This document shows, in pieces, positions 8,642 to 28,478 of a stretch of 64,000 nucleotides of DNA. The notes beneath the pieces are model-generated. The model did not search any database, was not told where the DNA came from, and saw only the letters and a program-made list of their open reading frames with translations. Position numbers and translations under genes: made by a program. Where the stretch lies: NCBI GenBank assembly GCA_964565705.1, contig CAZMGD010000003.1, positions 12,799 through 76,798 on the forward strand, given 5' to 3'. Within the stretch, counting starts at the first letter, position 1, and every line of letters begins with the position of its first letter. Origin of the DNA: an uncultured Ilumatobacteraceae bacterium. Lineage in GTDB: Bacteria > Actinomycetota > Acidimicrobiia > Acidimicrobiales > Ilumatobacteraceae.

Positions 8642-8658
8642 TCTGACACGGTATCAGA
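8642..8658. promoter_or_regulatory. Type-1 operator-like palindrome, site 1a (TCTGACACGGTATCAGA)
   Basis: One mismatch to TCTGAC-N5-GTCAGA. Lies 43 nt upstream of amidohydrolase start 8599 and overlaps the stop of the upstream LLM gene. Confidence 0.55.
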
Positions 8659-9565
8659 TCTTTTCGAGAACTCGACTGGCGAACTTCTCGACAGCAGCAC
8701 TGTACGACGCCAGATCGGTGGCGGGCATCGCCACGGCCAGTGCGGTGGCCCCGGCCTCGCGCAGCTGGTGGATCTCGTCGACCAGTTCGCCGGGATCCCA
8801 CTCGCCGCCCCAGATCGTCAGCGCCTTGGGGATCGCGATGACGTCCAGCGCATCGGTGCGACCGGCGGCGGCCTCCATCGCCCGCAGCTCGGCGACGCGA
8901 GCAGCCAGATCGGCGACGGTCTCCATGCCCGGCGTGCCCAGGCGCTGCTCCGACTTCTTCGGGCTGGGCATCGGCGACCAACCGTTGGCGTGGGCGACGG
9001 CCCGGCGCATCGCCGCCTTCGAGTTGCCGCCGACCCAGATCGGCGGATGCGGGCGCTGCACCGGCGCCGGGCGCACCACGGACTGGCGTGCGGTGTAGCC
9101 GACGCCGTCGTGGTCGAACGGCTCGCCCTGCCACGCGAGGCGCATCGCGACGAGCGCGTCGTCGGCCCGCCGGGCCCGGTCGTCGAACGAGGCACCGAGG
9201 GCGTCGAACTCCGGCTGGAGGTAACCGACCCCGACGCCGACGATCACCCGGCCGGCGGACAGGGCGTCGAGGCTGGCGACCGCCTTCGCCGCCAGCAGCG
9301 GGTTGCGGTAGCCGAGCACGAGCAGGTTGAGGTGCAGCCGCAGCGTGGTGGTCGCGGCGGCCACGAAGCTGAGCGCGACGAACGGATCGAGCGTCTCGTG
9401 GCCGGTGGTCAGCCACGCCGCGTCGGGCGCGGGGTGATCGGTGACGAACACGGCGTCGAAGCCCGCCTGCTCCGCCACCCGGGATGCGGCGGCGATGCCG
9501 GCGGCCGTGCACAGCGTGCCGGACGGATCGGGGCGGTCGATGGGCAGGCTGACGGACACCTTCAT
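8654..9565 (-). CDS. Luciferase-like (LLM class) flavin/F420-dependent oxidoreductase
   Basis: Real start is MKVSVSLP (ATG 9565), giving 303 aa. The rest of the 605-aa track ORF is a frame shadow. LLM hallmarks: FDAVFVTDH, LNLLVLGYRNP, RPHPPIWVGG. Confidence 0.85.
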   Translation of the reverse strand: MKVSVSLPIDRPDPSGTLCTAAGIAAASRVAEQAGFDAVFVTDHPAPDAAWLTTGHETLDPFVALSFVAAATTTLRLHLNLLVLGYRNPLLAAKAVASLDALSAGRVIVGVGVGYLQPEFDALGASFDDRARRADDALVAMRLAWQGEPFDHDGVGYTARQSVVRPAPVQRPHPPIWVGGNSKAAMRRAVAHANGWSPMPSPKKSEQRLGTPGMETVADLAARVAELRAMEAAAGRTDALDVIAIPKALTIWGGEWDPGELVDEIHQLREAGATALAVAMPATDLASYSAAVEKFASRVLEKI

Positions 9566-9579
9566 GGGTCGATCCTCGC

Positions 9580-10563
9580 TCAGAGGTGTGGCAGCACCTC
9601 GTGCTGGAGCAGTTCGAGGCTCTCCCACGACCACTCCGGATCGATGCCGCCCATCAGCGGGTGCAGGATCAGCCCCTGCGCGCCCTCCGGCATCGCCTGG
9701 ACCATCGCGATGGTCTCGGCCGGGGTGAGGATCTGGTACACGCCCTCCCGCCGCATCGCCTCGACCGAGTCGGCCTTGCTCTCGGTCATCGACGGCGTGT
9801 CCTCGGTCTGCCACGACGAGAACGCTGCCGCGTCGTGCACGGCGAGCGGGCCGATGCGGGCCCAGTCGCGCTCGGGGTCGTTGCTGACGTGCAGGAAGTT
9901 CGGACCGCTCGGCCGGGAGATGAACACCGGCGCGTTGCCGCTGCGCTCGCACTCCTCGTGGTACGCGGCCTCGATCGCCGGGTCGAAGTAGCTGGGGATC
10001 ATGCCCATCCCGAGCCGGGCGGCGCGGCGGGCGGCGATCGTCGACGAGCCGCCCATCACCTGGATCGGCCCGCCCGGCGTGACCGGCGACGGCTGCACGC
10101 GCACGGTGCGGCCCTCGTACTCGAACGGCTCGCCCGTCCAGGCCTGGCGCAGGACGTCGACGACCTCCTCCAGGCGCTTGCCGCGGCGGTGGAAGTCCGA
10201 GTGCAGCACCTCGAACTCGAGCTCGCGGTAGCCGATCGCGAACGTGACGATCACCCGGTACGGTCCGGCGAGGTTGTCGAGCGTGGCGAGATCCTCGGCG
10301 AGGCGGATCGGGTCCCACAGTGGGGCGACGACCGCGGCGACGGTGATCGGGATCCGTTTCGTCGCCCCGGCGACAGCGCCGCCGACGACCAGCGGCGAGG
10401 GCATGTAGCCGTCGTCGGTCACGTGGTGCTCGCTGAGCGAGATCGTCGTGAACCCTTGAGCGTCGGCCCACCGTGCCTGCTCGATCATCGCCGAGTAGAG
10501 CGCGCTGTGCGGCGCCCCCTCCGGTGCCCGGCGCATGTCGTAGCGCAGCGTGACGTCGACCAT
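9580..10563 (-). CDS. Luciferase-like (LLM class) flavin/F420-dependent oxidoreductase
   Basis: 327-aa ORF with GFTTISLSEHH, VTFAIGYRELEF and GGPIQVMGGSS. Confidence 0.85.
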   Translation of the reverse strand: MVDVTLRYDMRRAPEGAPHSALYSAMIEQARWADAQGFTTISLSEHHVTDDGYMPSPLVVGGAVAGATKRIPITVAAVVAPLWDPIRLAEDLATLDNLAGPYRVIVTFAIGYRELEFEVLHSDFHRRGKRLEEVVDVLRQAWTGEPFEYEGRTVRVQPSPVTPGGPIQVMGGSSTIAARRAARLGMGMIPSYFDPAIEAAYHEECERSGNAPVFISRPSGPNFLHVSNDPERDWARIGPLAVHDAAAFSSWQTEDTPSMTESKADSVEAMRREGVYQILTPAETIAMVQAMPEGAQGLILHPLMGGIDPEWSWESLELLQHEVLPHL

Positions 10564-10596
10564 GTGTGTATCCCCCGAGGTGTGTTGGTGAACCGG

Positions 10597-11247
10597 CTAC
10601 AGCGTGCGGCCGGTGAGTGTCTGGTAGATGATCGCGGTGATCGTGTCGGCCAGGCGTTCGCGGGTCAGACCGCGGCGCTCCATCGACGTCTCGTAGGCGA
10701 GCAATCGCTCGACCATCGCGACCATGGCCGATCCGGCGGCGAACGCTTCGATCTCAGGCGACACCCGGCCGGCGGCCTGTCCGTCGCGCACCGACTCGGC
10801 CATTGGCTCGACCAGCATGACGTTGGATCTGCGTCGCGCGTCGCGGAAGCGGCGATCGCCCTCCTCGGCCTTGAGGTTGCGGATGCGCAGCACCGCGTGG
10901 TGCTCGTCCCAGAACTTCAGGTAGGCGTCCACGAAGTCACGGGCCCGAGCGGGGCCGTCGGAGCCACCCCAACCACCGTTCAGGTGGTCGACGAGCGGAC
11001 GCTCGTGGTCGGTGGCCTCGTCGGCGAGGGCGAGGATCGCAGCGTCGACGTCGGCGAAGTACTGGTAGAAGGTCGCCGGCGAGGTGCCGACTTCGCGGGT
11101 GACATCGACGACCTTGAGCTCCATGACCCCGCGCTCCTGGAGGAGGCGGGCGGTGGTCTCGAGCAACCGGCGCCGGGTGTGTTGGGCCCGGGCACCGATC
11201 ACCCGGCCATCGGCGGCGAGCACCTCGTTCGTCATGGTGCCGGTCAC
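10597..11247 (-). CDS. TetR/AcrR family transcriptional regulator
   Basis: N-terminal HTH (RRRLLETTARLLQERGVMELKVVDVTREVGTSPATFYQYF). GTG start. A type-1 palindrome lies 14 nt upstream. Confidence 0.9.
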   Translation of the reverse strand: MTGTMTNEVLAADGRVIGARAQHTRRRLLETTARLLQERGVMELKVVDVTREVGTSPATFYQYFADVDAAILALADEATDHERPLVDHLNGGWGGSDGPARARDFVDAYLKFWDEHHAVLRIRNLKAEEGDRRFRDARRRSNVMLVEPMAESVRDGQAAGRVSPEIEAFAAGSAMVAMVERLLAYETSMERRGLTRERLADTITAIIYQTLTGRTL

Positions 11248-11260
11248 GTTACTGCGCGTT

Positions 11261-11277
11261 TCTGACGGGGCGTCAGA
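11261..11277. promoter_or_regulatory. Type-1 operator-like palindrome, site 1b (TCTGACGGGGCGTCAGA)
   Basis: Perfect 6+5+6 inverted repeat located between the TetR start (11247) and the SDR stop (11284). Confidence 0.65.
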
Positions 11278-11283
11278 TCCTGT

Positions 11284-12183
11284 TCAGGCGCCGTAGACCG
11301 GGCCGGGCGTCGGGGCCTCGGCGATCAGGTCGGCGACGATCGCGCCCACCTCGTCGGGGTCGTAGCGGGCACCCTTGTCGAAGGGCTTGCCGTGCTGCCA
11401 GCCGTCGGCGACGCTCAGCTCGCCGCCGGCGATCTCGAACATCCGCCCGGTCACGTTGCACGCCGACGAGCCGAGCCAGACGACGATCGGTGAGATGTTG
11501 GCGGGATCCATCGCGTCGAAGCCCGACTCGGGCTTGCGCATCATCTCGGCGAACGCATCCTCGGTCATCCGGCTGCGCGCGGACGGGGCGATGCCGTTGG
11601 CGAGGATGCCGTAGCGGCCGAGCTCCACCGCGGCGGTGATCGTGAACCCGGCGATGCCGGCCTTGGCCGCGACGTAGTTGGCCTGGGAGACGCTGCCGAA
11701 CAGGCCGGCGCCCGACGTCGTCGTGACGATGCGGGCCTCGACCGGCGTGCCGGCCTTGGACTGCGCCCGCCAGTGGTCGATCGCGTGGCGCACCGGGCAG
11801 AACATGCCGCGCAGGTGCACCTTGATGACCGCATCCCACTCGTCGACGGACATGTTGACGATCATCCGGTCGCGCACGATGCCGGCGTTGCAGACGAGCG
11901 TGTCGATGCTGCCGAACGTGTCGATCGCCTGCTGGATCAGGCGCCCGGCGCCGTCCCAGTCGCTGACGTCGTCGCCGTTGACGGCGGCGCGCCCGCCGGC
12001 GGCCTCGATCTCGTTGACGACCTCCTGCGCGGGGCTGAGGTCGGCGCCCTCGCCGCCGAGCGTGGCGCCGAGGTCGTTGACGATGACCGCCGCGCCCTCC
12101 GCGGCGAAGGCGAGTGCATGCGCTCGGCCGAGCCCGCGCCCACCGCCGGTGATGACGACGACGCGCCCGTCACAGATTCCCAT
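11284..12183 (-). CDS. SDR family oxidoreductase, MFE-2/Hsd4A-like hydroxyacyl-CoA dehydrogenase type
   Basis: VVVITGGGRGLGRAHA, VIVNDLG...GEGAD, and YVAAK catalytic Tyr/Lys. Confidence 0.85.
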   Translation of the reverse strand: MGICDGRVVVITGGGRGLGRAHALAFAAEGAAVIVNDLGATLGGEGADLSPAQEVVNEIEAAGGRAAVNGDDVSDWDGAGRLIQQAIDTFGSIDTLVCNAGIVRDRMIVNMSVDEWDAVIKVHLRGMFCPVRHAIDHWRAQSKAGTPVEARIVTTTSGAGLFGSVSQANYVAAKAGIAGFTITAAVELGRYGILANGIAPSARSRMTEDAFAEMMRKPESGFDAMDPANISPIVVWLGSSACNVTGRMFEIAGGELSVADGWQHGKPFDKGARYDPDEVGAIVADLIAEAPTPGPVYGA

Positions 12184-12195
12184 CTTGTTCTCTCC

Positions 12196-13161
12196 TCAGA
12201 GGTTGTCGGCGTACGCCTCGGCCAGCGTGTCGCTGTTGGCGAAGTGGGTGTCGAGCACGCAGGCCCGCTTCCAGTAGCGCTGGGCGTCGACCTCCCACGT
12301 GTAGCCCATGCCGCCGTGCACCTGGATGCAGTTCTTGCCGCAGAACAGTGCGCCGTCGCCGGCGAGCAGCTTGGCGGCGGTCGCCGCCTGCTCGTCGGGG
12401 GTGCCGTCGCCCTTCCCGTCTCGCGTCACGCCGGCCGCGTACACCGCCGCGCGCACGACCTCCGTGCGCGTGAGCATGTCGGCGAGCAGGTGCTTGACGG
12501 CCTGGAACTGGCCGATCGGGCGGTCGAACTGGCGACGCTCGAGCGCGTACTTGCTGGCCAGCTCGACGGTCGCCTCGCACATGCCGAGCTGGAGCGCGGA
12601 CGTCAGGATCAGCCCGTCGATGCGCCAGGCGGCAGCCGTGTCGGCGTCGGCCACCTGCTCTCCGGCGGGCAGGTCGGCGGTGACGAACGAGACCGGGGTG
12701 AGCGCGTCGAGTGGACGCTCGGCGGTGACCGCGGTGACCGCACCCGGGTCGATCCGAGTGATCCCGGTCGACGACAGCACGAGGAGGTCGTCGAGCGAGC
12801 CGAGGTGCTCGATCACGGTGACCGGCTCGGACTCCTGCACGAGCCCGACGACGCGGCTGCCGTCGGCGGCGCCTGTGCCGAGATCGCCGGGCAGCGATGC
12901 GGCGAGGTGGCTGGCGACCAGCGGCCCGGGCGTCAGCGCCCGGCCGAGTTCGGCGAACGCGAGCACCGCTTCGGACGTGCCGAAGCCGTCGACGCGGAGG
13001 CTGAACACGCCGAGCTCGGCGAGCTCGGACCACAGGCCGCGGTCGATCGCGCCGTCGTTCAGCTCGATCGGGTGGAGGATCTCGAGCGGTGCCCGCCCGG
13101 TGAGGAACGACCGGATGCCGTCGCGCAGGGCGACCTGGTCGTCGGTGAGCTCGAAGTCCAT
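12196..13161 (-). CDS. Acyl-CoA dehydrogenase, short beta-type subunit
   Basis: Real start is MDFELTDDQ (ATG 13161, 321 aa), overlapping the upstream stop by 1 nt (TGATG). ACAD C-terminal motifs: RRQFDRPIGQFQAVKH and QVHGGMGYTWE. Confidence 0.85.
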   Translation of the reverse strand: MDFELTDDQVALRDGIRSFLTGRAPLEILHPIELNDGAIDRGLWSELAELGVFSLRVDGFGTSEAVLAFAELGRALTPGPLVASHLAASLPGDLGTGAADGSRVVGLVQESEPVTVIEHLGSLDDLLVLSSTGITRIDPGAVTAVTAERPLDALTPVSFVTADLPAGEQVADADTAAAWRIDGLILTSALQLGMCEATVELASKYALERRQFDRPIGQFQAVKHLLADMLTRTEVVRAAVYAAGVTRDGKGDGTPDEQAATAAKLLAGDGALFCGKNCIQVHGGMGYTWEVDAQRYWKRACVLDTHFANSDTLAEAYADNL

Positions 13162-14399
13162 CAGCGACCTCCTGCCGGACTCGTCGCCGGTGGTTCCTTG
13201 GGCATGCCGAGCACCCGCTCGGCGACGATGTTGCGCTGCACCTGCGAGGTGCCGGCGGCGATCCCGAGCGACAGCGCACGGATGCGGGCGGCGACGTGGC
13301 GGTGCGTGGAGAGCGTGCCGTTCGGCGTGGGCACGTCGTCGATCGACAGCGATGCCCGGTCGAAGAGGTGCATCGCCAGGTCGCCGAGGCGCTGACGCAG
13401 TTCGGCGTACGCCAGCTTGAACACGTTGCCGCCCGGGCCGACGAGGCCCGTGCGCTGGGCCTGCGAGATGTTGCGCTTGGTCAGCGCCCAGAGCGCGTCG
13501 AGCTCGGCCGACAGGCGTCCGATGTCGCGGCGCAGGCCGCGGTCGTCCCACGCTGCGACGCCGTGGCGGGTCAGCGACTTGGCCATGTCGGCGAGGTCGC
13601 GCACGGCCTCCATCGCCTCCAGCATCTCGCTGACGAAGGCCGTGCCACGCTCGAAGCTGAGCGTCACCATCGTGACCCGCCAGCCGTCGTTCTCGCCGCC
13701 GACGCGGTTGGCGACAGGCACCCGCACCTCGTCGAAGAACACCTCGCAGAACTCGGTGCTGCCCTCCATCGTGCGCAGGCGCCGGACGTCCATGCCCTCG
13801 AGGCCCATCGGCAGGATCAGCCAGGAGATGCCGCGGTGCTTGGGCGCCTCGGGATCGGTGCGCACGAGCATCTCGCAGTAGTCGGCGGTGTGGCCGAAGC
13901 TCGTCCAGATCTTCTGGCCGCTGATCACGTAGTCGTCGCCGTCGCGCACGGCCTTGGTGCGCAGGCTGGCGAGGTCGCTGCCGGCTTCGGGCTCGCTGAA
14001 GCCCTGGCACCAGACGTGCTCGCCCTTCAGGATCGCCGGGAGGTGGAACGCCTTCTGCTCGGGCGTCGCCTCGGCGATCAGGGTCGGTCCGGCGTGCAGC
14101 AGGCCGACGAAGTTCATGCCGACGTACGGTGCGCGGGCGCGCTCGGTCTCCTCGAGGAAGATCAGGTGCTCGGCCGGTGTGGCGCCGCGGCCGCCGTACT
14201 CGGCGGGCCAGTGGATGCCGGCGTAGCCGCCCTCGAACAGCATCCGCTGCCAGTTCGTGTCGTAGACGCGCCGAGCTTCCCAGTCGTCACGGTCGGGCTC
14301 CGGGGGTACCTCCGGCAACACCTCGGCCAGCCAGGCCCGCAGGTCGGCCCGGAAGGCCTCCTCTTCATCGCTGTAGCGCAGATCCACGTGTCTCGTCAC
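13161..14399 (-). CDS. Acyl-CoA dehydrogenase, alpha-type subunit
   Basis: 412-aa ORF with WPAEYGGRGAT, WCQGFSEPEAGSDLA, GQKIWTS and GTSQVQRNIVAERVLG. Confidence 0.9.
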   Translation of the reverse strand: MTRHVDLRYSDEEEAFRADLRAWLAEVLPEVPPEPDRDDWEARRVYDTNWQRMLFEGGYAGIHWPAEYGGRGATPAEHLIFLEETERARAPYVGMNFVGLLHAGPTLIAEATPEQKAFHLPAILKGEHVWCQGFSEPEAGSDLASLRTKAVRDGDDYVISGQKIWTSFGHTADYCEMLVRTDPEAPKHRGISWLILPMGLEGMDVRRLRTMEGSTEFCEVFFDEVRVPVANRVGGENDGWRVTMVTLSFERGTAFVSEMLEAMEAVRDLADMAKSLTRHGVAAWDDRGLRRDIGRLSAELDALWALTKRNISQAQRTGLVGPGGNVFKLAYAELRQRLGDLAMHLFDRASLSIDDVPTPNGTLSTHRHVAARIRALSLGIAAGTSQVQRNIVAERVLGMPKEPPATSPAGGR

Positions 14400-14423: not shown

Positions 14424-14440
14424 TCTGATACACCGTCAGA
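14424..14440. promoter_or_regulatory. Type-1 operator-like palindrome, site 1c (TCTGATACACCGTCAGA)
   Basis: One mismatch. Centred in the 64-nt divergent region between starts 14399 (-) and 14464 (+). Confidence 0.6.
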
Positions 14441-14463: not shown

Positions 14464-15906
14464 ATGATGGACGAACGCTGGCCGGTGGTGGTCGGTCTGG
14501 GTGAGATGGTGCAGCGCGACGGCGTGTTCGACGCGGCCGGGCTGATGACCGAGAGCCTGCGCGCGGCGCGATCGGACGCCGGGCCCGGGCTGACCGAGCC
14601 CGATCTGGTGCTCGCGCCGCGGGGCATGTGGACGCACCCCGATCCCGGTCGGGCCGCAGCCCTGGCCACCGGTTCGCCGTCGGTACGATCGATCGTCGCC
14701 GAGATCGGGGTGCTCCAGACCACGTTGTTCCAGCGCTCGTTCGCCGAGATCCTCGCCGGCACGGCTTCGGTGGTCGCGGTCGTCGGGGGCGAAGCTCGCT
14801 ACCGTTCGGTGCGCGGCGGCGAGGAAGCACCGGGGGAGGGCGAGCCCGACGAGGTGCTGCGACCGACCAGCGAGATCATCACCCGGCTCGAGGTTGCGCG
14901 TGGCCTGGGCGTGCCCGCCCACCAGTACGCGCTGATCGAGTCGGCGCTCGCCCACCGCGCCGGCCGCACCCCGACCGAGCAGACGGCCGCGCTGGGCGAG
15001 CTGTGGGCGCTCGGTGCCACCGCGGCGGCGCGCAACCCGGGTGCCTGGCGGCGCGACGCACCGGACGCGGCGACGATCGCCGGTCCCGACGGCGGCAACC
15101 GGATGATCGCCACGCCCTACCGCAAGTGGCTCGTCAGCGACTGGACCGTCGACCAGGCGGTCGCGTTCGTGATCACCTCCGCCGGCGCGGCCCGCGCCGC
15201 GGGCATCCCCGAGGAGCGCTGGATCGTGCCGGTCTCGGCCGCTGTCTCCAACCACATGGTGCCGCTCAGCGAGCGAGCCGACATCGGGCGGTATCCGGCG
15301 ATGGAGGCGATCGGCGAGGCGCTGGTTGCAGCGGGCGTGCCGGCCGGCGACGCCGATCTGCGGGAGATCTACAGCTGCTTCCCCGCCGCCGTGCAGGTGC
15401 AGTGCGCTGCCCTCGGCATCGACCCGTGGACCGGGTGGACCGTCAGCGGCGGCATGACGTTCGGTGGCGGGCCACTCAACAACTTCGTGCTGCAGTCCAC
15501 CGCCGCCGTCGCTCGCGCGCTGCGAGCCGGAGCCGGCCGCACCGCGCTCGTCACCGCGGTCAGCGGGATGATCACCAAGGTCGGTGCCGTCGCCTGGCAG
15601 GTGGGCCGTCCCGTCGATTCGGCGGATGCCGCCGCCCTGTCGATCGACGTCACGGACGAGGCCGCGGCCCGCACCCCGACGTGCGCGGTCGACGCCGCCC
15701 TTCAGGGGGAACTGACGGTCGTCGCCCACACCGTCGTCCACGACAAGGGTGAGCCGTCCCGAGCGATCATCTTCGCCGAGGACGCTGCCGGCACCCGCAC
15801 CATCGCCACCTCCACCGCCCCCGAGGTCATCCAAGCCTGCACCGCCCGCGACCTCGTCGGCACGACGGCGACGGTCGAGCACGCCGAGGTCACCGCCCTC
15901 GCGTGA
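14464..15906 (+). CDS. Thiolase-like (SCP-x/Ltp-type) protein lacking the nucleophile Cys, with a C-terminal ~90-aa extension
   Basis: Thiolase-fold C-terminal pattern (EIYSCFPAAVQVQ, GGMTFGGGPLNN). The position of the usual CxSG nucleophile reads EIGVLQT. Confidence 0.65.
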   Translation: MMDERWPVVVGLGEMVQRDGVFDAAGLMTESLRAARSDAGPGLTEPDLVLAPRGMWTHPDPGRAAALATGSPSVRSIVAEIGVLQTTLFQRSFAEILAGTASVVAVVGGEARYRSVRGGEEAPGEGEPDEVLRPTSEIITRLEVARGLGVPAHQYALIESALAHRAGRTPTEQTAALGELWALGATAAARNPGAWRRDAPDAATIAGPDGGNRMIATPYRKWLVSDWTVDQAVAFVITSAGAARAAGIPEERWIVPVSAAVSNHMVPLSERADIGRYPAMEAIGEALVAAGVPAGDADLREIYSCFPAAVQVQCAALGIDPWTGWTVSGGMTFGGGPLNNFVLQSTAAVARALRAGAGRTALVTAVSGMITKVGAVAWQVGRPVDSADAAALSIDVTDEAAARTPTCAVDAALQGELTVVAHTVVHDKGEPSRAIIFAEDAAGTRTIATSTAPEVIQACTARDLVGTTATVEHAEVTALA

Positions 15907-16009: not shown

Positions 16010-16026
16010 CGCGAGCGCAGCGAGCC
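16010..16026 (-). repeat. Dispersed 17-mer, reverse-complement copy of GGCTCGCTGCGCTCGCG
   Basis: CGCGAGCGCAGCGAGCC is the exact reverse complement of the copy at 31308..31324. Confidence 0.7.
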
Positions 16027-16044: not shown

Positions 16045-16803
16045 CTAGCTCGTCACGCCGGTGTCGATGGGGACGATGCTGCCGCTCATGAAGCGGGCCT
16101 CGTCGCTGGCGACGAACGCGAAGCCGGCGGCGAGGTCTTCGGGCTCGGCGGTGCCCATCGGCGTCATCGTGCGGGCCAGCTTCTTGAAGCTCGCACCCTC
16201 GGGCACCGTGTTGGCGAAGCCAGGGATGATGTTCGTGTTGGTCGGGCCCGGCGCGATCGCGTTGACCCGCACACCCTGGTCGAGGTACTCGAAGGCCATC
16301 GCCTTGGTGAGCATGACGACGCCGCCCTTCGACGCGCAGTAGGCGGCGCTCCACGGCTGGCCCGAGATGCCGGCGTTGGACGCGGTGTTGACGATGTTGC
16401 CCTTGCTCTCCAGCAGGTGGGGCAGGGTGTAGCGGCTGACGAGGAACGTGCCGGTGAGGTTGGTGGCGATCGTCTCGTCCCACCCCTCGACCGTCTCCTC
16501 GTGGCTGAGCGCGAAGTGACCGAGACCGGCGATGTTGAGCACGACGTCGATGCCCCCGAGCTCGGCGACGACCGAGGCGATCATCGCCTCGACCGCGGCT
16601 GCGTGGCTGACGTCGCACACGTACGCGGTGGCGGAGCCGCCGGCTTCGGTGATCGCGCCGACCGTCGCGGCGAGCCCTTCGGCGTCGCGGTCGACGGCGG
16701 CGACGTGGCCTCCCTCGGCGGCGAAGCGCTTGGCGGTGGCCCGGCCGATGCCCGACGCGGCGCCCGTGCAGACGATGCGCTTGCCTTCGAAGCGAGCCGC
16801 CAT
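16045..16803 (-). CDS. SDR family oxidoreductase
   Basis: 252 aa with IVCTGAASGIGRATA, NTASNAG and YCASKGGV. Its start overlaps the upstream stop by 1 nt. Confidence 0.9.
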   Translation of the reverse strand: MAARFEGKRIVCTGAASGIGRATAKRFAAEGGHVAAVDRDAEGLAATVGAITEAGGSATAYVCDVSHAAAVEAMIASVVAELGGIDVVLNIAGLGHFALSHEETVEGWDETIATNLTGTFLVSRYTLPHLLESKGNIVNTASNAGISGQPWSAAYCASKGGVVMLTKAMAFEYLDQGVRVNAIAPGPTNTNIIPGFANTVPEGASFKKLARTMTPMGTAEPEDLAAGFAFVASDEARFMSGSIVPIDTGVTS

Positions 16804-17912
16804 CAGAAGGTCAGCACGCCGCGGGCGAGGTTGCCGCCCTCCATCTCGTGGATGACGGTCTCGTATTCCTCGAGCGGGTAGGTGGCCGAGACAAGCTCAT
16901 CGAGCTTGACGAGTCCGCGGCGATACAGGTCGATGATGAACGGCATGTCGCGGTGCGGCGAGTAGCTGCCGGCGCGGGTGCCGACGAGTCCACGATCCAC
17001 CTGGGTGAGGCGCGTGTAGATGCCCTCGTACCGGGCGTCGGGGGCCGGCACGCCGATGACGACGCACGTGCCACCCCAGTCCAGGCTCTCCAGCGCGTTC
17101 ATCGTGACGGTCGGGTGGGCCACCACGTCGAACGCCCAGTCCATGCCTCCGGCGTTGAACGGGCCACGGACCTGCGAGTCGCTGTAGGGCCGGAGGGCTG
17201 CGATCTGCTCGACGATGTCCGACGCCTTGCCGTCGAGGAAGTGGGTCGCGCCGAACTGGAGGGCGAGCGCTTCCTTCTTCGGCTCGGTGTCGACGGCGAC
17301 GATCGTCGACGCGCCTTGCACCTTCAGCGCCTGGAGCACGTTGAGCCCGACACCGCCGACGCCGAACACGACGGCGGCGTCGCCGTCGCGGACGTTGGCC
17401 CGGTTGAACACGGCACCCATGCCGGTGACGACGCCGCAGCCGACGAGGGCCGCCGACGTCAACGGCACGTCGTCGTCGATCTTCACGCACTGCGTGTCGC
17501 GCACGAGGGTGTACTCGCCGAACGCGCTCGTCGACGCGAAGTTCCACACCGGCTCGCCGCCCATGCTGAACGGCTGCGTGGGGGCACCGATGCTCTTGCG
17601 GCAGCGGGCCGGCTGGCCGTCGCCGCACTGCTTGCACACACCGCAAGACGCCAGGGTGGCGATCATGATGTGGTCGCCCTCCTGCACGTGGCTGACCGCG
17701 GAGCCGACCTTGTCGACGATGCCGGCGCCCTCGTGACCGCACACGGCAGGAGCGGGCACGACCCCGGCGTAGAGCCCGGTCATGAAGCTCACGTCGCTGT
17801 GGCAGAAGCCGGCAGCAGCCATCTTGACGACGACCTCGCGCGGGCCCGGATCGCGGACCTTCAGGTTGTCGACCAGCTTGGTCTCCGTACCGTCGTAGAC
17901 GATGCCTCGCAT
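16803..17912 (-). CDS. Zn-dependent alcohol dehydrogenase (MDR superfamily)
   Basis: Real start is MRGIVYDG (ATG 17912, 369 aa), with a GAGGGGG RBS. Motifs: GFCHSDVSF, CGHEGAGIV, CGVCKQCGDGQPARC and VFGVGGVG. Confidence 0.9.
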   Translation of the reverse strand: MRGIVYDGTETKLVDNLKVRDPGPREVVVKMAAAGFCHSDVSFMTGLYAGVVPAPAVCGHEGAGIVDKVGSAVSHVQEGDHIMIATLASCGVCKQCGDGQPARCRKSIGAPTQPFSMGGEPVWNFASTSAFGEYTLVRDTQCVKIDDDVPLTSAALVGCGVVTGMGAVFNRANVRDGDAAVVFGVGGVGLNVLQALKVQGASTIVAVDTEPKKEALALQFGATHFLDGKASDIVEQIAALRPYSDSQVRGPFNAGGMDWAFDVVAHPTVTMNALESLDWGGTCVVIGVPAPDARYEGIYTRLTQVDRGLVGTRAGSYSPHRDMPFIIDLYRRGLVKLDELVSATYPLEEYETVIHEMEGGNLARGVLTF

Positions 17913-17958: not shown

Positions 17959-17975
17959 TCTGACGACCCGTCAGA
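17959..17975. promoter_or_regulatory. Type-1 operator-like palindrome, site 1d (TCTGACGACCCGTCAGA)
   Basis: Perfect inverted repeat 47 nt upstream of ADH start 17912. Confidence 0.65.
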
Positions 17976-17995: not shown

Positions 17996-18517
17996 TCAGG
18001 GCCAGTCGATGCCGGCCTGGATCGCGGCGGCGGTGACGCCGAGCAGCGAGCTGCGTTCCACCTGCTCGTAGCGGTCGCCTTCGCCGGTGAGCTCGAACCA
18101 CACGACGGTGTGCCGGTCGGGATCGGCGACGACGATCTCCCGGACACCGCATGCCGCGTAGTGCGGGAACTTCTCCCAGGTGTCGTCGCCCGGTGACAAC
18201 ACCTCCACGATCAGGGCCGCGGTCGGTACGTAGACGGTGGTCGGCATCGACCGGTGGAACCCGAGGTCGGGAACTCGGAAGTTGTCCTGCTCGCCGACGT
18301 TGAAGTCGGTCGAGCGGATCAGACCTGCTGCGTCAGCGGGGGCCTTGAGCAGATCGCCGATCATCATGGTGACCACGCCATGTCGTGGATGCGCTGCCGG
18401 CGCCATGTGGTAGTCGCCCTCCCAGATCTCGTCGAATCTGTCGATACCGAGGGCTTGGCGCCGAGCGATGAGCGCGTCGATCTCCGGCGGTCGCGGGCCG
18501 AGGATGACGGTGCGCAT
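17996..18517 (-). CDS. Uma2 family (DUF820, PD-(D/E)XK-like) putative endonuclease
   Basis: 173 aa with WEGDYHMAPAA, PDLGF and ALIVEVLSPGD...KFPHYAACGVREIVVADP, typical of Uma2. Confidence 0.8.
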   Translation of the reverse strand: MRTVILGPRPPEIDALIARRQALGIDRFDEIWEGDYHMAPAAHPRHGVVTMMIGDLLKAPADAAGLIRSTDFNVGEQDNFRVPDLGFHRSMPTTVYVPTAALIVEVLSPGDDTWEKFPHYAACGVREIVVADPDRHTVVWFELTGEGDRYEQVERSSLLGVTAAAIQAGIDWP

Positions 18518-18562: not shown

Positions 18563-20137
18563 TCACGTGGTGAGGCGGTCGCGCAGCTCGAACTTGAGGA
18601 TCTTGCCGGACGGGTTGGTCGGCAGCGATTCGACGACGAACACCTTCCGAGGCACCTTGTAGTTGGCCATCTTCTCTCGGCTCCAGGCGATGACCTCGTC
18701 GGGATCGACGGTTGCGCCGGCGCGGGGGATCACGAACGCGACGCCGACCTCGCCCATCCGCTCATCGGGCATGCCGACCACCGCGGCCTGGGCGATCGCC
18801 GGGTGGCCGAGCAGGAAGTTCTCGATCTCGGCCGGGTAGGCGTTGTTGCCGCCGATGATGAACATGTCCTTGGTGCGGTCCGTGATCTGCACGTAGCCGC
18901 GCTCGTCCATCACGCCGATGTCGCCGGTGTGCAACCAGCCGTCGGCGTCGATCGCTTCGGCCGTGGCCTCCGGGTCGTCGAGGTAGCCGACCATCACGTT
19001 GTATCCACGGCAGAGGATCTCGCCGGGGTCGCCGGCGGGTACGTCGTTGCCGTCGGTGTCGACGATCTTGACCTCGACACCCTCGATCGCGCGTCCTGAC
19101 GTGTGCGAGATCGTCTCGGCATCGTCGTCGGGCCGGCAGATCGTGATCGTCCCGGTGGACTCGGTGAGCCCGTAGGCGGTGACGATCGTCTCGAACGTCA
19201 GCTCGTTGCGCATCCGCTCGATCATCTCCACCGGCACGGCGGCGGCACCGGTGACGGCGAGGCGCAGCGACGACAGGTCGTGGTTGGCGCGATCGGGGTG
19301 GTTGAGGATCGACAGGTACACCGTCGGCGGTCCGGGGAACGCGGTGATCCGCTCGGTCTCGATGCGGGCCAGCACGCGCTCGATGTCGAACGCCGGCTCG
19401 GGCACGATCGTGGCTCCCGTCAGGATGCACGCACAGATGCCGGCCTTGTACCCGAAGGAGTGGAAGAACGGGTTGACGAGCAGCATCCGGTCGCCGGCAC
19501 GCAGGCCGACCGTGTTGGCCCACGTCGTGAACACGCGGGTGGTCTGCTCGTGGGTGACCATCACGCCCTTCGAGCGACCGGTGGTGCCGGACGTGAAGAG
19601 GATGTCGCTGAGGTCGGTGGGCGCGACCGACGCAGCGCGGGCCTGCGCTGCCTCCGGGGTGACCGACGCGCCGCTGGCGAGGAAGTCGGCCCACGACGAC
19701 GTGCCCTCGACCTCGGCGCCACGCAGGATCACGATCGGCGGCAGCGGACGGTCGGCAGCCTCGGCGCGCAGCATGTCGAGGTAGCGGTTGCCGACGAACT
19801 CCTCGACGGCGAACAGCAGCTTGGCGTGGCTGCGGGTCAGCACGTCGAACGCCTCGAACCCCTTGAACCGCGTGTTGAGCGGCACGACGACGCCTCCGGC
19901 ACCGTGGATGCCCGTCGCCGCGACCACCCACTCGCGGATGTTGTGGCCCCAGATCGCGACCGTGTCGCCGGTCCGGATGCCGGCCGCGATCAGTGCTCGG
20001 GTGACCTCCTCGGCCTGGGCGGCGAGCTCGCGGTAGGTCACGTGGACGGCTCCGGGCTCATCAGGCGTGGTCGCATGGTCGGCGATCGCGTCGGTGTCCC
20101 CGTGCTCCTCGGCTGCCCGTCGGAGTGCCGCCGGCAT
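18563..20137 (-). CDS. AMP-dependent acyl-CoA synthetase/ligase (FadD-type)
   Basis: Motifs ILFTSGTTGRSKGVM, GYGLTE, TGDIG and PSGKILK. The start is uncertain: ATG 20137 is chosen, with GTG 20170 and ATG 20227 as alternatives. The upstream part of the 736-aa track ORF is a shadow. Confidence 0.85.
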   Translation of the reverse strand: MPAALRRAAEEHGDTDAIADHATTPDEPGAVHVTYRELAAQAEEVTRALIAAGIRTGDTVAIWGHNIREWVVAATGIHGAGGVVVPLNTRFKGFEAFDVLTRSHAKLLFAVEEFVGNRYLDMLRAEAADRPLPPIVILRGAEVEGTSSWADFLASGASVTPEAAQARAASVAPTDLSDILFTSGTTGRSKGVMVTHEQTTRVFTTWANTVGLRAGDRMLLVNPFFHSFGYKAGICACILTGATIVPEPAFDIERVLARIETERITAFPGPPTVYLSILNHPDRANHDLSSLRLAVTGAAAVPVEMIERMRNELTFETIVTAYGLTESTGTITICRPDDDAETISHTSGRAIEGVEVKIVDTDGNDVPAGDPGEILCRGYNVMVGYLDDPEATAEAIDADGWLHTGDIGVMDERGYVQITDRTKDMFIIGGNNAYPAEIENFLLGHPAIAQAAVVGMPDERMGEVGVAFVIPRAGATVDPDEVIAWSREKMANYKVPRKVFVVESLPTNPSGKILKFELRDRLTT

Positions 20138-20232: not shown

Positions 20233-20249
20233 TCTGACGGGTCGTCAGG
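20233..20249. promoter_or_regulatory. Type-1 operator-like palindrome, site 1e (TCTGACGGGTCGTCAGG)
   Basis: One mismatch. Lies in the divergent region between the acyl-CoA ligase (-) and the enoyl-CoA hydratase (+). Confidence 0.55.
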
Positions 20250-20275: not shown

Positions 20276-21061
20276 GTGTCCGAGTACGAAGCGTTGATCT
20301 ACGAGGCCGATGGGCCGGTGGGCTGGGTCACCCTGAACCGGGTCGATCGGCACAACGCGCTGAACGAGCAGATCGCCGGCGAGCTGCAGGACGTGTGGGC
20401 TCGACTGCGGATGGACGCCTCGATCAAGGTCGTCGTGCTGACGGCCGCCGGCGACAAGGCGTTCTGCACCGGCATCGACCGCAGCTGGCAGGTGCCGCAG
20501 CCGCCGAGCCACTTCATGATCGACGACCCGCTGATGAAGATCGGCCCGAAGACCAACGACCTCTGGAAGCCGGTGGTGGCGGCGGTCAACGGGATGGCCT
20601 GCGGCGGCGCCGCCTACCTGCTGGGCGAGGTCGAGACGATCGTCGCCGCCGACACCGCCACGTTCTTCGATCCACACACCACCTACGGCATGGCAGCCTG
20701 CTACGAGCCCATCTTGCTGTTCGGGCAGATGCCGTGGGGCGAGCTGTGCCGCCTGGCGCTGATGGGCAACCACGAGCGGATGTCAGCGCAGCGGGCCCAG
20801 CAGGTCGGGTTCGTGCAAGATGTCGTGCCGCTCGCCGAGCTGCGCGACGAGGCCGGCAGGATCGCTCAGGCGATGGCCTCGCAGCCCGCCGCCGCGCTGG
20901 AGGGCACGCTGCGCGCGCTGTGGTCGGCGCGGGAGATGGCTCGGGCGCAGGCGATCGCGATGGCGCCGCACCTCGTGACCCTCGGCAACCAGCCCGACGC
21001 GATCGCCGAGGGACAAGCGGCGTTCTCGTCCGGCCAGCGGATCAGCTGGACGCTGCGCTGA
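20276..21061 (+). CDS. Enoyl-CoA hydratase/isomerase family protein
   Basis: Motifs VTLNRVDRHNALN, VVVLTAAGDKAFCTGID and AAVNGMACGG. GTG 20276 follows AGGGGG; GTG 20261 is an alternative start. Confidence 0.85.
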   Translation: MSEYEALIYEADGPVGWVTLNRVDRHNALNEQIAGELQDVWARLRMDASIKVVVLTAAGDKAFCTGIDRSWQVPQPPSHFMIDDPLMKIGPKTNDLWKPVVAAVNGMACGGAAYLLGEVETIVAADTATFFDPHTTYGMAACYEPILLFGQMPWGELCRLALMGNHERMSAQRAQQVGFVQDVVPLAELRDEAGRIAQAMASQPAAALEGTLRALWSAREMARAQAIAMAPHLVTLGNQPDAIAEGQAAFSSGQRISWTLR

Positions 21062-21846
21062 TGCTGGCCCAGGACGCCTTCCGCCTCGACGGCCGGTTCG
21101 CCGTCGTCACCGGCGCCGCGCAGGGCATCGGCAAGGCGATCGCGATCGCGTTCGCCGAGTACGGCGCCGATCTCGCGATCTGCGACCGCAAGGTCGAGGG
21201 AATGGAGTCGACGGCCGAGGAGATCCGCGCGCTCGGGCGGACGTGCACGGCGACCGAGCTCGACGTCCGCTCGGTCGACGGTGTCAACGAGTGGATCGGC
21301 GCGATGGGCCGCATCGACGTGCTCGTCAACAACGCCGGCGGTGGCTTCCACGCCCACTTCGACACGGTCAGCGAGAAGGGCCAGAAGGCGCTGATCGACG
21401 AGAACTTCACCAGCGTCACGGCGTGCATCCGCGCCGCGCTGCCACACTTCACCGACGGCGGATCGATCATCAACGTGACGACCGTGGAGGCGTTCCGCGC
21501 CTCGCCCGGGTTCGGGATCTACGGGGCGATGAAGGCCGGCGTCGAGCACCTGTCCCGCACGCTCGCCCTCGAGCTGTCGCCGCGCGGCATCCGGGTCAAC
21601 ACGATCGCTCCCGACGGGATCGACACCGAGGGCGAGGTCGGCCTGATGGCCGCCACCGGGTCCTCCGAGGCGTACCGGGCCCAGCTCGCGCTCGGCGCAG
21701 GCACGATCGCCGAGGCCGCGGGGCCGGCCGTGTTCCTCGCGTCGTCCGCGTCCAAGTACCTGACGGGCACGACGCTCCACGTCGATGGTGGCAGCGACGC
21801 CGCCAGGGGCTGGCGCAAGCAGCCCAACGGCTCCTGGTTCCCCTGA
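21061..21846 (+). CDS. SDR family oxidoreductase
   Basis: Real start is MLAQDAF (ATG 21061), overlapping the upstream stop by 1 nt. Motifs: AVVTGAAQGIGKAIA, NNAGG and YGAMKAG. Confidence 0.88.
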   Translation: MLAQDAFRLDGRFAVVTGAAQGIGKAIAIAFAEYGADLAICDRKVEGMESTAEEIRALGRTCTATELDVRSVDGVNEWIGAMGRIDVLVNNAGGGFHAHFDTVSEKGQKALIDENFTSVTACIRAALPHFTDGGSIINVTTVEAFRASPGFGIYGAMKAGVEHLSRTLALELSPRGIRVNTIAPDGIDTEGEVGLMAATGSSEAYRAQLALGAGTIAEAAGPAVFLASSASKYLTGTTLHVDGGSDAARGWRKQPNGSWFP

Positions 21847-25228: not shown

Positions 25229-25271
25229 GGGCGGCGACGCTATCGCTCGGGCCCGGAGCCCGGTCCGCGGC

Positions 25272-26228: not shown

Positions 26229-26230
26229 CG

Positions 26231-27379
26231 TCAGACCCCCTTCGGCAGCTGGAGCACGCGGTCGGCGATGATGTTGCGCTGGATCTCGTTGGTGCCGGCG
26301 TAGATCGGGCCCGACAGCGAGAACAAGAACCCGTCCACCCAGCGCTCGTCCGGGCCCTCCAGCCGTTCCGCCTCGGGTCCGAGGATCTGGAGCGCGAGCT
26401 CGTGGATGCGCACGTCCATCTCCGACCAGAAGATCTTGTTCAGCGACGCCTCGGCACCGATCGGACGGCCCTCGATCATCGCCGTCACCGTGCGGTACGT
26501 GTGCAGCCGGTAGCCCTCGGCCTGCATCCAGACGTCGGCGACGGCATCGGACAGCGCGGTGTCGCTGTGGTCGGCTCGCTGCTTCCAGAGCGCGACCAGC
26601 CGGTCGGCGGCGGCGGAGAAGCGAGCGGGCGAGCGCAGCGACACACCGCGCTCGAAGCCGGCGGTGGCCATCGCCACGTACCAGCCGCGGCCCTCGGCGC
26701 CGAGCAGGTTCTCGACCGGCACGCGCACGTCGTCGAAGAAGATCTCGGCGAAGCCGGTGTCGCCGTCGAGCTGGGCGATCGGCCGCACCGTGATGCCGGG
26801 CAGGTCGAGCGGACAGAGGATGAACGTCAGGCCCTTGTGGCGCTGCGACTCCGGGTCGGTGCGGAAGATGCCGAAGCACCAGTCGGCCCACACCGCTCGC
26901 GACGCCCAGATCTTCTGGCCGTTGAGGATCCAGTCGTCCCCGTCACGGGTGGCCTTCGAACGGATCGCGGCGAGATCGCTGCCGGCGTTCGGCTCGCTCC
27001 ATGCCTGGGCCCAGACGATCTCGCTCGACGCCATCGTCGGCAAGAAGCGCGCTTTCTGCTCGTCGGTGCCGACCTCCTGGATCGTCGGGCCGAGCAGGAA
27101 GATGCCGTTCTGGTTGACCCGGCCCGGTGCACCGGCGCGGTAGTACTCCTCCTCGAAGATCAGCCACTTGATGTAGTCGGCGCCACGGCCGCCGTACTCG
27201 ACGGGCCACGACACAGCGGACCAGCCACCGTCGTGGAGCGTGCGCTCCCACTCCCGGTGCAGCGCGAACCCCACCTCCGTGTCGAAGCTCGGCAGTGGCT
27301 CGGCAGGCACGTGCTCGGCCAGCCACGCACGCGCCTCCTCCCGGAAGGCCTGTTCGTCGGCCGTGTACCTCAGATCCAT
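26231..27379 (-). CDS. Acyl-CoA dehydrogenase, alpha-type subunit
   Basis: 382 aa with WPVEYGGRGAD, AQAWSEPNAGSDLA, GQKIWAS and GTNEIQRNIIADRVL. Confidence 0.9.
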   Translation of the reverse strand: MDLRYTADEQAFREEARAWLAEHVPAEPLPSFDTEVGFALHREWERTLHDGGWSAVSWPVEYGGRGADYIKWLIFEEEYYRAGAPGRVNQNGIFLLGPTIQEVGTDEQKARFLPTMASSEIVWAQAWSEPNAGSDLAAIRSKATRDGDDWILNGQKIWASRAVWADWCFGIFRTDPESQRHKGLTFILCPLDLPGITVRPIAQLDGDTGFAEIFFDDVRVPVENLLGAEGRGWYVAMATAGFERGVSLRSPARFSAAADRLVALWKQRADHSDTALSDAVADVWMQAEGYRLHTYRTVTAMIEGRPIGAEASLNKIFWSEMDVRIHELALQILGPEAERLEGPDERWVDGFLFSLSGPIYAGTNEIQRNIIADRVLQLPKGV

Positions 27380-27488
27380 CGGCGGGCCAACCTACTGGCG
27401 CAGCGCGGTCGCCTCGAACTCCACGGTTCTCAGGGAACTCACACGGAGCGTCCAGCGGCGCTTGTGGATCCCGGCCGACAGTGACGGT

Positions 27489-28406
27489 ATGGAACCGCTC
27501 GACCCTCCTCGCCACACCGTGACCGACCACCCGTCGGGCCCGCCGCTGGTGGCCCCGGGCGATGCCTCCGAGAACCTCTGGGCACCGCCGCCACCCCCGG
27601 TCGCCTCGCCGCGCACGTACCGGCGGCGGCGCACGACAGCGCTGCTCGGCGTGTCCGCGGCGATCGCGCTGGCCGCCGGTGCGGGCGGTGGCTTCCTCGC
27701 CGCCAGCACCCAGGACCACGGCGGATCGACGTCGATCGCCAAGGTCCAGTCGGTCAGCCTCACCTCCGGAGCGAGCATCGCCGACCTGGTGCAGTCGCTC
27801 GAGTCGTCGGTGGTGTCCGTCGACACCGAGGTGGAGGTGCGCCAGGGCCCGTTCGTCCGGCAGGGTCAGGGCGCCGGCTCTGGCATCGTGCTGGAGGGCG
27901 GCTACATCCTGACCAACGCCCACGTCGTCGCGGACGCGACCTCGATCACGGTCACGCCGGCGGGGACCGGCACCGCTCGCACCGCGACGCTCGTCGGGGC
28001 CGACACGGCCAACGACGTGGCGGTGTTGAAGGTGGACGACACCACGGGTATGACGCCGGCGACGCTCGGCGACAGCGGCGCCGCCCAGGTCGGTGACTCG
28101 GTGATCGCGATCGGCAACGCGCTCGCGCTCGAGGGCGGGCTGACGGTGACCGAGGGGATCGTCTCGGCGACCGGCCGCACCATCGAGGACGAGAACGGCA
28201 CGCTGACCAACCTGATCCAGACCGACGCGGCGATCTCCTCGGGCAACTCCGGCGGCGCGCTCGTGAACACCAGCGGCGAGGTGATCGGGATGAACTCTGC
28301 AGTCGCCACGAGCAGCGGTTCGGTGTCGGCGTCCAACATCGGATTCGCCATCGCGATCAACCACGCGATGGACATCGCCGAGCAGCTGATCAACAGCGGC
28401 ACCTGA
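27489..28406 (+). CDS. Membrane-anchored trypsin-like serine protease (S1C/HtrA-like, no PDZ seen)
   Basis: Real start is MEPLD (ATG 27489). There is a TM segment ALLGVSAAIALAAGAGGGFLAA. Catalytic triad contexts: TNAHVV, NDVAVLKV, GNSGGALV. Confidence 0.85.
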   Translation: MEPLDPPRHTVTDHPSGPPLVAPGDASENLWAPPPPPVASPRTYRRRRTTALLGVSAAIALAAGAGGGFLAASTQDHGGSTSIAKVQSVSLTSGASIADLVQSLESSVVSVDTEVEVRQGPFVRQGQGAGSGIVLEGGYILTNAHVVADATSITVTPAGTGTARTATLVGADTANDVAVLKVDDTTGMTPATLGDSGAAQVGDSVIAIGNALALEGGLTVTEGIVSATGRTIEDENGTLTNLIQTDAAISSGNSGGALVNTSGEVIGMNSAVATSSGSVSASNIGFAIAINHAMDIAEQLINSGT

Positions 28407-28461
28407 GCCAACGGTCACGTCGCCCGGCCCGACCCGACCGCCGCGGGCGCCCGAGCCGTAG

Positions 28462-28478
28462 TCTGACGGTGTGTCAGA
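28462..28478. promoter_or_regulatory. Type-1 operator-like palindrome, site 1f (TCTGACGGTGTGTCAGA)
   Basis: Perfect inverted repeat at or overlapping the first candidate start (GTG 28471) of the DUF35-thiolase operon. Confidence 0.6.

Follow-up and report, generated by a model that had tools for sequence, protein, structure and literature searches.

A palindromic predicted operator at six promoter-proximal sites of a catabolic gene cluster in an uncultured Ilumatobacteraceae bacterium and its putative EthR-like TetR-family repressor

We analyzed a stretch of 64,000 nucleotides (hereinafter the window; G+C = 70%) from an uncultured Ilumatobacteraceae bacterium (contig CAZMGD010000003.1 of GenBank assembly GCA_964565705.1), in which a 17-nt palindrome, TCTGAC-N5-GTCAGA, recurs at six positions (O1 to O6) beside genes coding for a TetR-family regulator and a series of catabolic enzymes. 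Genes were called by codon-position GC and named by means of Pfam and NCBIfam, and their starts were refined from in-frame start codons, Shine-Dalgarno (SD) sequences, and homologues (Table 1); the Pfam and NCBIfam matches confirmed all gene assignments of a preliminary description of this DNA. The site-bearing segment encodes, besides the regulator, an amidohydrolase, two luciferase-like (LLM) oxidoreductases, a pair of acyl-CoA dehydrogenases (ACADs), several short-chain dehydrogenases/reductases (SDRs), a zinc-dependent alcohol dehydrogenase (Zn-ADH), a FadD3-family acyl-CoA ligase (NF005801: 725.8 bits vs a cut-off of 657), an enoyl-CoA hydratase (ECH), and a DUF35-Ltp-thiolase set. An unrelated block coding for GGT, a DD-carboxypeptidase, a second ACAD pair, and a trypsin-like protease follows the ECH-SDR pair. 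The open reading frame 8634-9512(-), taken from a longest-ORF listing, was discarded as lying in the wrong frame: its Arg-rich translation is without homology, and the real gene there is LLM2 (8654-9565(-)). The Uma2 gene (putative restriction-endonuclease-like) is wedged between the ligase gene and the Zn-ADH operator; in related loci, the ligase and ADH genes usually occur in its absence.

The six copies of the palindrome, three perfect and three with a single mismatch, were recovered exactly as the preliminary description had reported them. In dinucleotide-preserving shuffles of the window, 0.01 perfect sites and 0.18 sites with at most one mismatch are expected, and none of 100 shuffled windows reached six. 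When two mismatches were allowed, a single additional match emerged at 48315; this match falls within an ECF-sigma gene, its score of 13.8 bits equals the maximum over 20 shuffled windows, and it was rejected as a chance occurrence. Rescanning the window with a weight matrix built from 97 sites returned a bimodal distribution, with the six sites scoring 23.8-28.7 bits and every other position at most 13.8; consequently, we recognize exactly six sites in the window. The rescan detected no site above noise in the ring-cleavage half of the window or upstream of the second ACAD pair, which had indeed been described as lacking one. From the same 97 sites we obtained a refined 19-bp consensus, ATCTGACG-N3-CGTCAGAT, which extends beyond the hexamers by an A/T before and after the core, plus G7/C11: in genomes of ~70% G+C, the unselected flank positions are A/T in 89% of the sites, and G occupies position 7 in 74%. 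Sharing among the sites is limited to these 17-19 bp, and the surrounding flanks are unrelated. Of the extended flank earlier ascribed to most sites, the A/T flanks proved general, whereas the full gtT...TC is present in only three of the six.

The gaps that carry the sites are 48-140 nt long, and two of the six (those of O3 and O5) separate divergent genes. For seven of the eight flanking genes the proximal edge of the site lies 19-46 nt from the start codon, with the ligase as the exception (62-95 nt); such placements are classical repressor positions. The earlier claim that all sites are intergenic needs qualifying for O1, which overlaps the TGA stop of LLM2 by 5 nt, so that the stop falls in its left half-site (…AAG ATC TGA TAC…); the same arrangement is seen in the related locus L083. 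O2 is a putative autoregulatory site of the TetR gene, to judge from its position. The preliminary description had placed it 14 nt from the TetR start; homologues support ATG 11235 (giving 212 aa) and not GTG 11247 as the start codon, and the actual gap is therefore 25 nt.

Table 1. Genes and predicted operators of the site-bearing segment. Targets are predicted ones; distances run from the proximal edge of the site to the start codon, and scores are those of the weight matrix.
Feature	Coordinates	Strand	Score (bits)	Remarks
Amidohydro_2 enzyme	7379..8599	-		target of O1; SD GAGGGGG, ATG 8599
O1, TCTGACACGGTATCAGA (minus strand TCTGATACCGTGTCAGA)	8642..8658		25.6	one mismatch; 42 nt upstream of amidohydrolase ATG 8599
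LLM2, luciferase-like oxidoreductase	8654..9565	-		downstream of TetR, co-oriented; 81% identical to L083 counterpart
LLM1, luciferase-like oxidoreductase	9580..10563	-		downstream of TetR, co-oriented
TetR-family regulator, 212 aa	10597..11235	-		TetR_N + TetR_C_38; proposed cognate repressor
O2	11261..11277		28.7	perfect; 48-nt gap from SDR stop 11284 to TetR ATG 11235; 25 nt upstream of TetR
PRK07791-type SDR	11284..12183	-		ACAD operon under O3, reads into TetR
ACADb	12196..13161	-		ACADa-ACADb-SDR operon under O3
ACADa	13161..14387/14399	-		first gene of the operon under O3
O3	14424..14440		28.1	one mismatch; centre of 64-76 nt divergent gap ACADa (-)/TLP1 (+); 24-36 nt from ACADa, 23-26 nt from TLP1
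Thiolase-like TLP1 (PRK08257-like)	14464..15906	+		divergent target of O3
SDR	16045..16803	-		ADH-SDR operon under O4
Zn-ADH	16803..17912	-		ADH-SDR operon under O4
O4	17959..17975		26.3	perfect; 46 nt upstream of Zn-ADH ATG 17912, downstream of Uma2 stop
Uma2	17996..18517	-		between FadD3-family ligase and ADH operator
FadD3-family acyl-CoA ligase	18563..20137/20170	-		start ATG 20137 or GTG 20170; target of O5
O5	20233..20249		23.8	one mismatch; divergent gap ligase (-)/ECH-SDR (+); 26 nt upstream of ECH GTG 20276, 62-95 nt from ligase
ECH	20276..21061	+		divergent target of O5
SDR	21061..21846	+		with ECH, divergent target of O5
O6	28462..28478		25.4	perfect; 19 nt upstream of DUF35 GTG 28498
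DUF35/ChsH2-like OB protein	28498..28947	+		operon under O6
Ltp-type thiolase	28947..30146	+		PRK06059, 746.6 vs cut-off 424; operon under O6
Thiolase	30158..31306	+		PRK07801, 680.5 vs cut-off 591; operon under O6

The regulator matches PF00440 (TetR_N, residues 28-66; E = 2.4e-7) and PF19352 (TetR_C_38; E = 1.2e-24), with a match to the Pfam EthR_C family below threshold. Its homologues number more than 1200; most come from uncultured Acidimicrobiia (Ilumatobacteraceae and their relatives), and they bear only generic 'AcrR/TetR family' names. An alignment of 27 of them shows the recognition helix TSPATFYQYF to be almost invariant. The AlphaFold2 model (pLDDT 90.9; nine helices) displays a confident TetR fold. 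By sequence, the nearest solved structure is EthR (E = 7e-11; 34 PDB sequence matches), which is also the closest fold (TM-score 0.76/0.83, 21% identity). A fold search recovered 157 PDB matches at E<=0.001, of which the best 50 are all TetR-family proteins or unnamed putative regulators; no chain named KstR or KstR2 is present among the 34 sequence matches or these best 50 fold matches.

We used a scan seeded with the alignment of TetR homologues, including the peptide ATFYQYF, to collect 80 genome loci (1.28 Mb in total). These derive mostly from Acidimicrobiia metagenome-assembled genomes (MAGs; TetR 40-59% identical), together with Myxococcota/deltaproteobacterial MAGs, a 48% GC Pseudomonadales MAG, and Streptomyces (TetR 35-37% identical), and the TetR gene is the sole regulator consistently present in them. 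With at most one mismatch, 92 sites were detected in 48 of the 80 loci, about 25 times the chance rate. Of these, 64 (70%) lie within 150 nt upstream of, and are oriented towards, a homologue of a protein of the proposed regulon, as against 47 of 1200 random positions (3.9%); the partners are homologues of the amidohydrolase (18 sites), TetR (10), the ligase (8), ACADa (7), and the ADH, the PRK07791 SDR, and Ltp/DUF35 (5 each). Of the checks that the preliminary description had proposed, those on the frequency of the motif in coding DNA and on its conservation in relatives both came out in its favor: the motif is depleted in coding DNA (11 of 97 sites vs 877 of 1215 random positions, by a crude coding classifier), and it is kept upstream of orthologous operons (amidohydrolase, ADH, ACADa-ACADb-SDR-TetR, DUF35-Ltp-thiolase, ligase, and TetR) in dozens of Acidimicrobiia MAGs, in Myxococcota/deltaproteobacterial MAGs, in one Pseudomonadales MAG, and in Streptomyces.

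This conservation extends to individual operators. The variant seen at O1, with a central TACCGT (TANNNT-like; TCTGATACCGTGTCAGAAAC), also precedes amidohydrolase orthologues in several loci (L002, L012, L015, L023, L025, L030, L081, L083). A site occupies the SDR|TetR gap or lies directly upstream of TetR in L009-L011, L017, L027, L031, L041, L044, L057, and L081-L083, and in L017, L027, L031, L041, L044, and L057 it stands directly before TetR despite differing neighbor genes. Likewise, sites are found upstream of ADH orthologues (L001, L004, L006, L023, L037), upstream of FadD-type ligases (L013, L019, L020, L029, L034), directly upstream of DUF35-Ltp-thiolase orthologues (L013, L020, L029, L098), and, in the Streptomyces loci, between a FadD3-like ligase and Ltp/ECH. 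The gene order ACADa-ACADb-SDR-TetR is kept in L009-L012, L016, L023, L025, L030, L039, and L081-L084. In the close loci L081-L084 (TetR 61-79% identical), the three full-length ones (L081, L083, L084) all retain the ACADa-upstream and amidohydrolase-upstream sites, and L081-L083 retain that of the SDR|TetR gap; L084 has an extra gene between SDR and TetR, with a site instead in the divergent SDR/LLM gap beyond TetR. L083 is in full synteny with the window, including the LLM genes. In a reverse test, 80 loci from metagenome contigs were retrieved by the 19-bp consensus alone; 33 of their 80 sites (41%) lie within 150 nt upstream of a regulon-protein homologue, compared to 3.45% of random positions in the same contigs, the neighbors being mostly ACADa, amidohydrolase, SDR, DUF35-Ltp, and ligase homologues. 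The low-GC contigs without regulon-type neighbors are probably chance matches.

Some members of this locus set merit mention in their own right. The Streptomyces loci with TetR homologues 35-37% identical (L062, L065, L068, L071, L072, L074, L077) carry variant sites (such as TCTGATGTACCGTCAGA, TCTGACGGTACGTCAGT, and GCTGACTnnCCGTCAGA), also in the gap that separates the FadD3-like ligase (49-53% identical) from the Ltp/ECH genes; cultured Streptomyces carriers are possible experimental hosts. Two public MAG records titled 'Bifidobacterium breve', L030 (CAMAQM010000015.1) and L040 (CAMDCC010000229.1), have 68-69% G+C; the former carries an Acidimicrobiia-type ACAD-SDR-TetR-amidohydrolase locus, the latter, a 5-kb contig, only a TetR homologue, and both labels are almost certainly wrong.

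In an alignment of 13 ACADa upstream regions, non-coding conservation is confined to a single island, made up of the operator and an abutting TANNNT hexamer. The hexamer immediately follows the operator in 9 of the 13 (TACGGT, TACGCT, TACTCT, TACTGT, TAATGT, TACACT), and these hexamers fit the actinobacterial -10 pattern TANNNT. In seven of the regions, no SD is present and the start codon lies 9 nt beyond the hexamer (15 nt in L105). This spacing suggests that the ACADa-type genes are transcribed as leaderless mRNAs, in which case the operator would cover the -35/spacer region, spanning about -32 to -14.

The palindrome is far more frequent than expected, lies close to promoters, is retained at orthologous positions, and accompanies the TetR clade, and the protein has a TetR fold. 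On this basis we predict that the six palindromes are the operators of the TetR repressor encoded at 10597-11235(-), and consider this assignment likely. The recurring pairing of regulator and motif in uncultured relatives indicates that the palindrome is very probably the binding site of this TetR. We infer binding, repression, and a stoichiometry of one dimer per site: a TetR homodimer would bind each 19-bp ATCTGACG-N3-CGTCAGAT site, with half-sites about one helical turn apart, through the nearly invariant helix-turn-helix. As the sites would overlap or abut the predicted core promoters, the bound repressor would exclude RNA polymerase from six promoter regions, of which two are bidirectional. 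The predicted regulon comprises at least 16 genes, namely the amidohydrolase gene; TetR-LLM-LLM; ACADa-ACADb-SDR with the divergent TLP1; ADH-SDR; the FadD3-family ligase gene with the divergent ECH-SDR; and DUF35-Ltp-thiolase. The TetR gene would be part of its own regulon, being situated behind O2 and, in addition, downstream of the O3-controlled ACAD operon, an arrangement that would result in negative autoregulation. A pathway metabolite probably binds an EthR-like C-terminal pocket and releases the repressor; the likeliest candidate is the CoA-thioester product of the FadD3-like ligase, probably the effector by analogy with KstR2 and HIP-CoA, KstR, and the acyl-CoA-sensing FadR regulators.

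Several points weigh against parts of this interpretation. No site with at most one mismatch lies within 10 kb on either side of the TetR homologue in 32 of the 80 loci, although these include several that are short contigs or in which a two-mismatch site adjoins TetR, and a paralogous TetR subgroup seems to be without canonical sites within 10 kb. The recognition helix is identical in motif-bearing and motif-less loci and is thus uninformative; its invariance across the loci arises partly by construction, since the scan was seeded with ATFYQYF. The core-promoter assignments at the operators are drawn from TANNNT-like hexamers only. A TANNNT histogram around 106 sites does peak at or just 3' of the operator, but this clustering stems partly from the A/T flanks of the motif itself and was given little weight. 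A sigma-70 consensus scan around all sites found no promoter, a null result that is expected for a 70% GC actinobacterium and hence uninformative. Runs containing the locus were DNA metagenomes (compost, sludge, soil), with no RNA-seq run among them, and the effector is proposed purely by analogy.

The siteless subgroup (L028, L035, L042, L046, L048, L050-L053, L076) has TetR proteins that are 44-54% identical and share the same recognition helix, with a differing neighborhood of Amidohydro-like, Ltp-like, and divergent SDR-pair genes. L041 and L044 are close relatives of this subgroup, yet have a site right upstream of TetR.

The palindrome might instead be a real operator of another regulator, such as the MarR protein encoded at 34311-34862 or one whose gene lies beyond the window. 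In favor of this, 32 of the 80 TetR-homologue loci lack a canonical site nearby, the MarR gene is 6 kb beyond O6, and the TetR-site pairing is one predicted from sequence. Nevertheless, we consider another regulator improbable: the motif is ~25-fold enriched in loci that were retrieved through TetR alone, a site lies directly upstream of the TetR gene in 10 cases, even where the neighbors differ, and no second regulator recurs in the related loci, with MarR itself encoded outside the site-bearing segment. Still less probable is that the inverted repeat acts as RNA, folding into a hairpin of 6-8 bp, within 5' leaders or in the RNA that separates two cistrons, that serves as a processing, stability, or attenuation signal. 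Each site can indeed fold (-6.5 to -14.4 kcal/mol), and O1 and O2 are located between co-oriented genes, where read-through would transcribe both; however, the fold z-scores (-0.7 to -2.7 for seven of eight folds) are mostly unremarkable, no U-tract follows any site, none of the six is overlapped by a terminator-like site, and Rfam yields no match in 7000-30000. The stem is conserved in sequence rather than covarying, from Acidimicrobiia to Streptomyces, Myxococcota, and the 48% GC gammaproteobacterium, and sites in the middle of a divergent gap or just 5' of -10-like hexamers on leaderless-type genes would not be transcribed at all; nor is an RNA element expected to track the TetR gene. Finally, chance matches or a short dispersed repeat (of the repetitive extragenic palindromic (REP) or miniature inverted-repeat transposable element (MITE) kind) without regulatory function might be envisaged, as the window does hold another such element, GCTCGCTGCGCTCGC, in four perfect copies. 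This explanation is effectively refuted by the failure of all 100 shuffles to reach six sites, by the restriction of sharing to 17-19 bp amid unrelated flanks, and by the retention of orthologous positions across distant taxa.

The GCTCGCTGCGCTCGC element is unrelated to the operator palindrome, and its four perfect copies compare with 0.14 expected. Three direct copies lie at 31309-31430, in the gap between the thiolase stop (31306) and an α/β-hydrolase start, and one inverted copy at 16011-16025, in the convergent TLP1/SDR gap; as all are at gene 3' ends, it may be a REP-like or terminator-associated element. The window further contains, at 32574-46585, ring-attack-type genes coding for a KstD-like dehydrogenase (below the NCBIfam cut-off), MarR, LigB-type and BphC/HsaC-like extradiol dioxygenases, two Amidohydro_2 proteins, a cytochrome P450, and a large indolepyruvate-ferredoxin-oxidoreductase-like protein. 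All of these genes are without the TetR operator, and that half must accordingly be controlled separately. At 3173-4407, an encapsulin shell gene (Linocin_M18) follows an EncFtn-like cargo gene and adjoins genes for an ATP-dependent DNA ligase and a helicase fragment, while a DUF222/HNH endonuclease gene (50336-51463) is situated in a stretch of weak coding signal (49-51.6 kb). DUF222/HNH endonuclease genes are often mobile or repeated in actinobacteria.

If TetR and the palindrome are paired as predicted, they provide a precise regulator-operator pair for a clade that exceeds 1200 homologues and is represented chiefly in uncultured Acidimicrobiia of freshwater, soil, and compost, and the 19-bp motif could be used to delimit the regulon in MAGs. 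The motif would assign generically annotated SDR, ACAD, amidohydrolase, LLM, and Ltp genes to a single pathway and indicate which ligase product is the likely inducer; the TetR/operator pair is also a possible compact repressor/operator part for biosensors. Mechanistically, the system is ordinary, a standard local TetR repressor with its operator, and the surprise for a specialist is modest.

Among known systems, Bacillus FadR/YsiA and Thermus FadR are TetR repressors that act at several palindromic operators preceding β-oxidation operons and are released by acyl-CoA. Bacillus halodurans FadR is among our fold matches (ranks 29, 35, and 44), but its structural similarity is weak (TM-score about 0.64, 12-14% identity), and the operators and regulated enzymes differ. 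EthR (Rv3855) of M. tuberculosis, the nearest solved relative by both sequence and fold, shows cooperative binding by several dimers and has a single divergent monooxygenase gene under its control. Its motif is described as larger and more complex, with multiple copies, and as not a classical palindrome (PMC4482099), unlike the 19-bp palindrome here, which is compact and recurs at six promoters of a regulon with several operons. The SAV151 operator of Streptomyces avermitilis, TCTGACATGGTGTCGTGTCAGA, which is bound by a TetR-family protein (PMC10933834), has the same outer hexamers, TCTGAC...GTCAGA; however, its spacer is 10 nt instead of 5, implying another phasing of the half-sites, with no evidence of orthology, and we regard the resemblance as probably coincidental. 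Searches of open papers with the half-sites and the Streptomyces variant found no description of the operator, only primers, unrelated matches, and this N10-spaced SAV151 site, and a search of the open literature combining Acidimicrobiia, steroid, and TetR found nothing relevant. The string CTGAC/GTCAG does not appear in the text of a mycobacterial TetR motif survey that presents its motifs as figures (PMC4482099).

The KstR regulator of the cholesterol regulon (Rv3574) resembles the present one in being a TetR repressor of genes for β-oxidation of steroid/lipid side chains (ACAD pairs, Ltp/DUF35, hydratases). KstR recognizes a 14-bp palindrome in promoter regions and has a CoA-thioester effector. 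Its regulon, 83 genes in M. smegmatis (PMC3068626), is much larger than the one here, and its box, TnnAACnnGTTnnA, has no exact match in the window. The closer parallel in organization is KstR2 (Rv3557c), the TetR repressor of HIP (steroid C/D-ring) catabolism in Mycobacterium and Rhodococcus, which acts through the 14-bp consensus AnCAAGnnCTTGnT in three intergenic gaps (PMC3068626). In both systems a local TetR repressor, autoregulated in the case of KstR2 and predicted to be so here, is associated with a short palindrome that recurs in a small number of gaps, some of them divergent, within one catabolic cluster, at comparable distances from the starts (22-82 bp for KstR2 (PMC3068626) vs 19-95 here), and both regulons include a FadD3-family ligase, heteromeric ACADs, ECH, SDRs, and a thiolase. 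They differ in the operator (AnCAAGnnCTTGnT vs the 19-bp ATCTGACG-N3-CGTCAGAT), in the addition here of the amidohydrolase, the two LLM oxidoreductases, the Zn-ADH, and DUF35-Ltp, in that no ipdAB-type CoA transferase is seen in the present segment, and in the host, here an uncultured Acidimicrobiia-like bacterium. The preliminary description had held the sites to be distinct from the KstR and KstR2 boxes, and rightly so, since neither TnnAACnnGTTnnA nor AnCAAGnnCTTGnT matches any of the six. One-mismatch matches to AnCAAGnnCTTGnT do occur elsewhere in the window (four, vs 0.21 expected); three are inside coding DNA, and the other, ATCAAGTGGTTGGT (32533-32546), lies in a 42-nt gap directly upstream of the KstD-like FAD dehydrogenase gene (32574-34304), with no KstR2-type regulator identified in the window.

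By its operator, the present system is a member of neither the KstR2 nor the KstR regulon, and its regulator appears EthR-like rather than KstR-like. A broader interpretation, which we offer tentatively and rate as rather doubtful, is that the TetR clade and its operator might be the master switch of a widespread, undescribed module for the breakdown of a bulky alicyclic or steroid-derived acid (HIP-like, activated by the FadD3-family ligase); this module, operator included, might have spread to Streptomyces, Myxococcota, and some Gammaproteobacteria, and in uncultured Acidimicrobiia it would be a functional counterpart of KstR2, with a regulator from an unrelated, EthR-like TetR lineage. If the substrate is such a steroid-ring or alicyclic intermediate, abundant uncultured actinobacteria would govern its metabolism through a protein unrelated to either KstR or KstR2.

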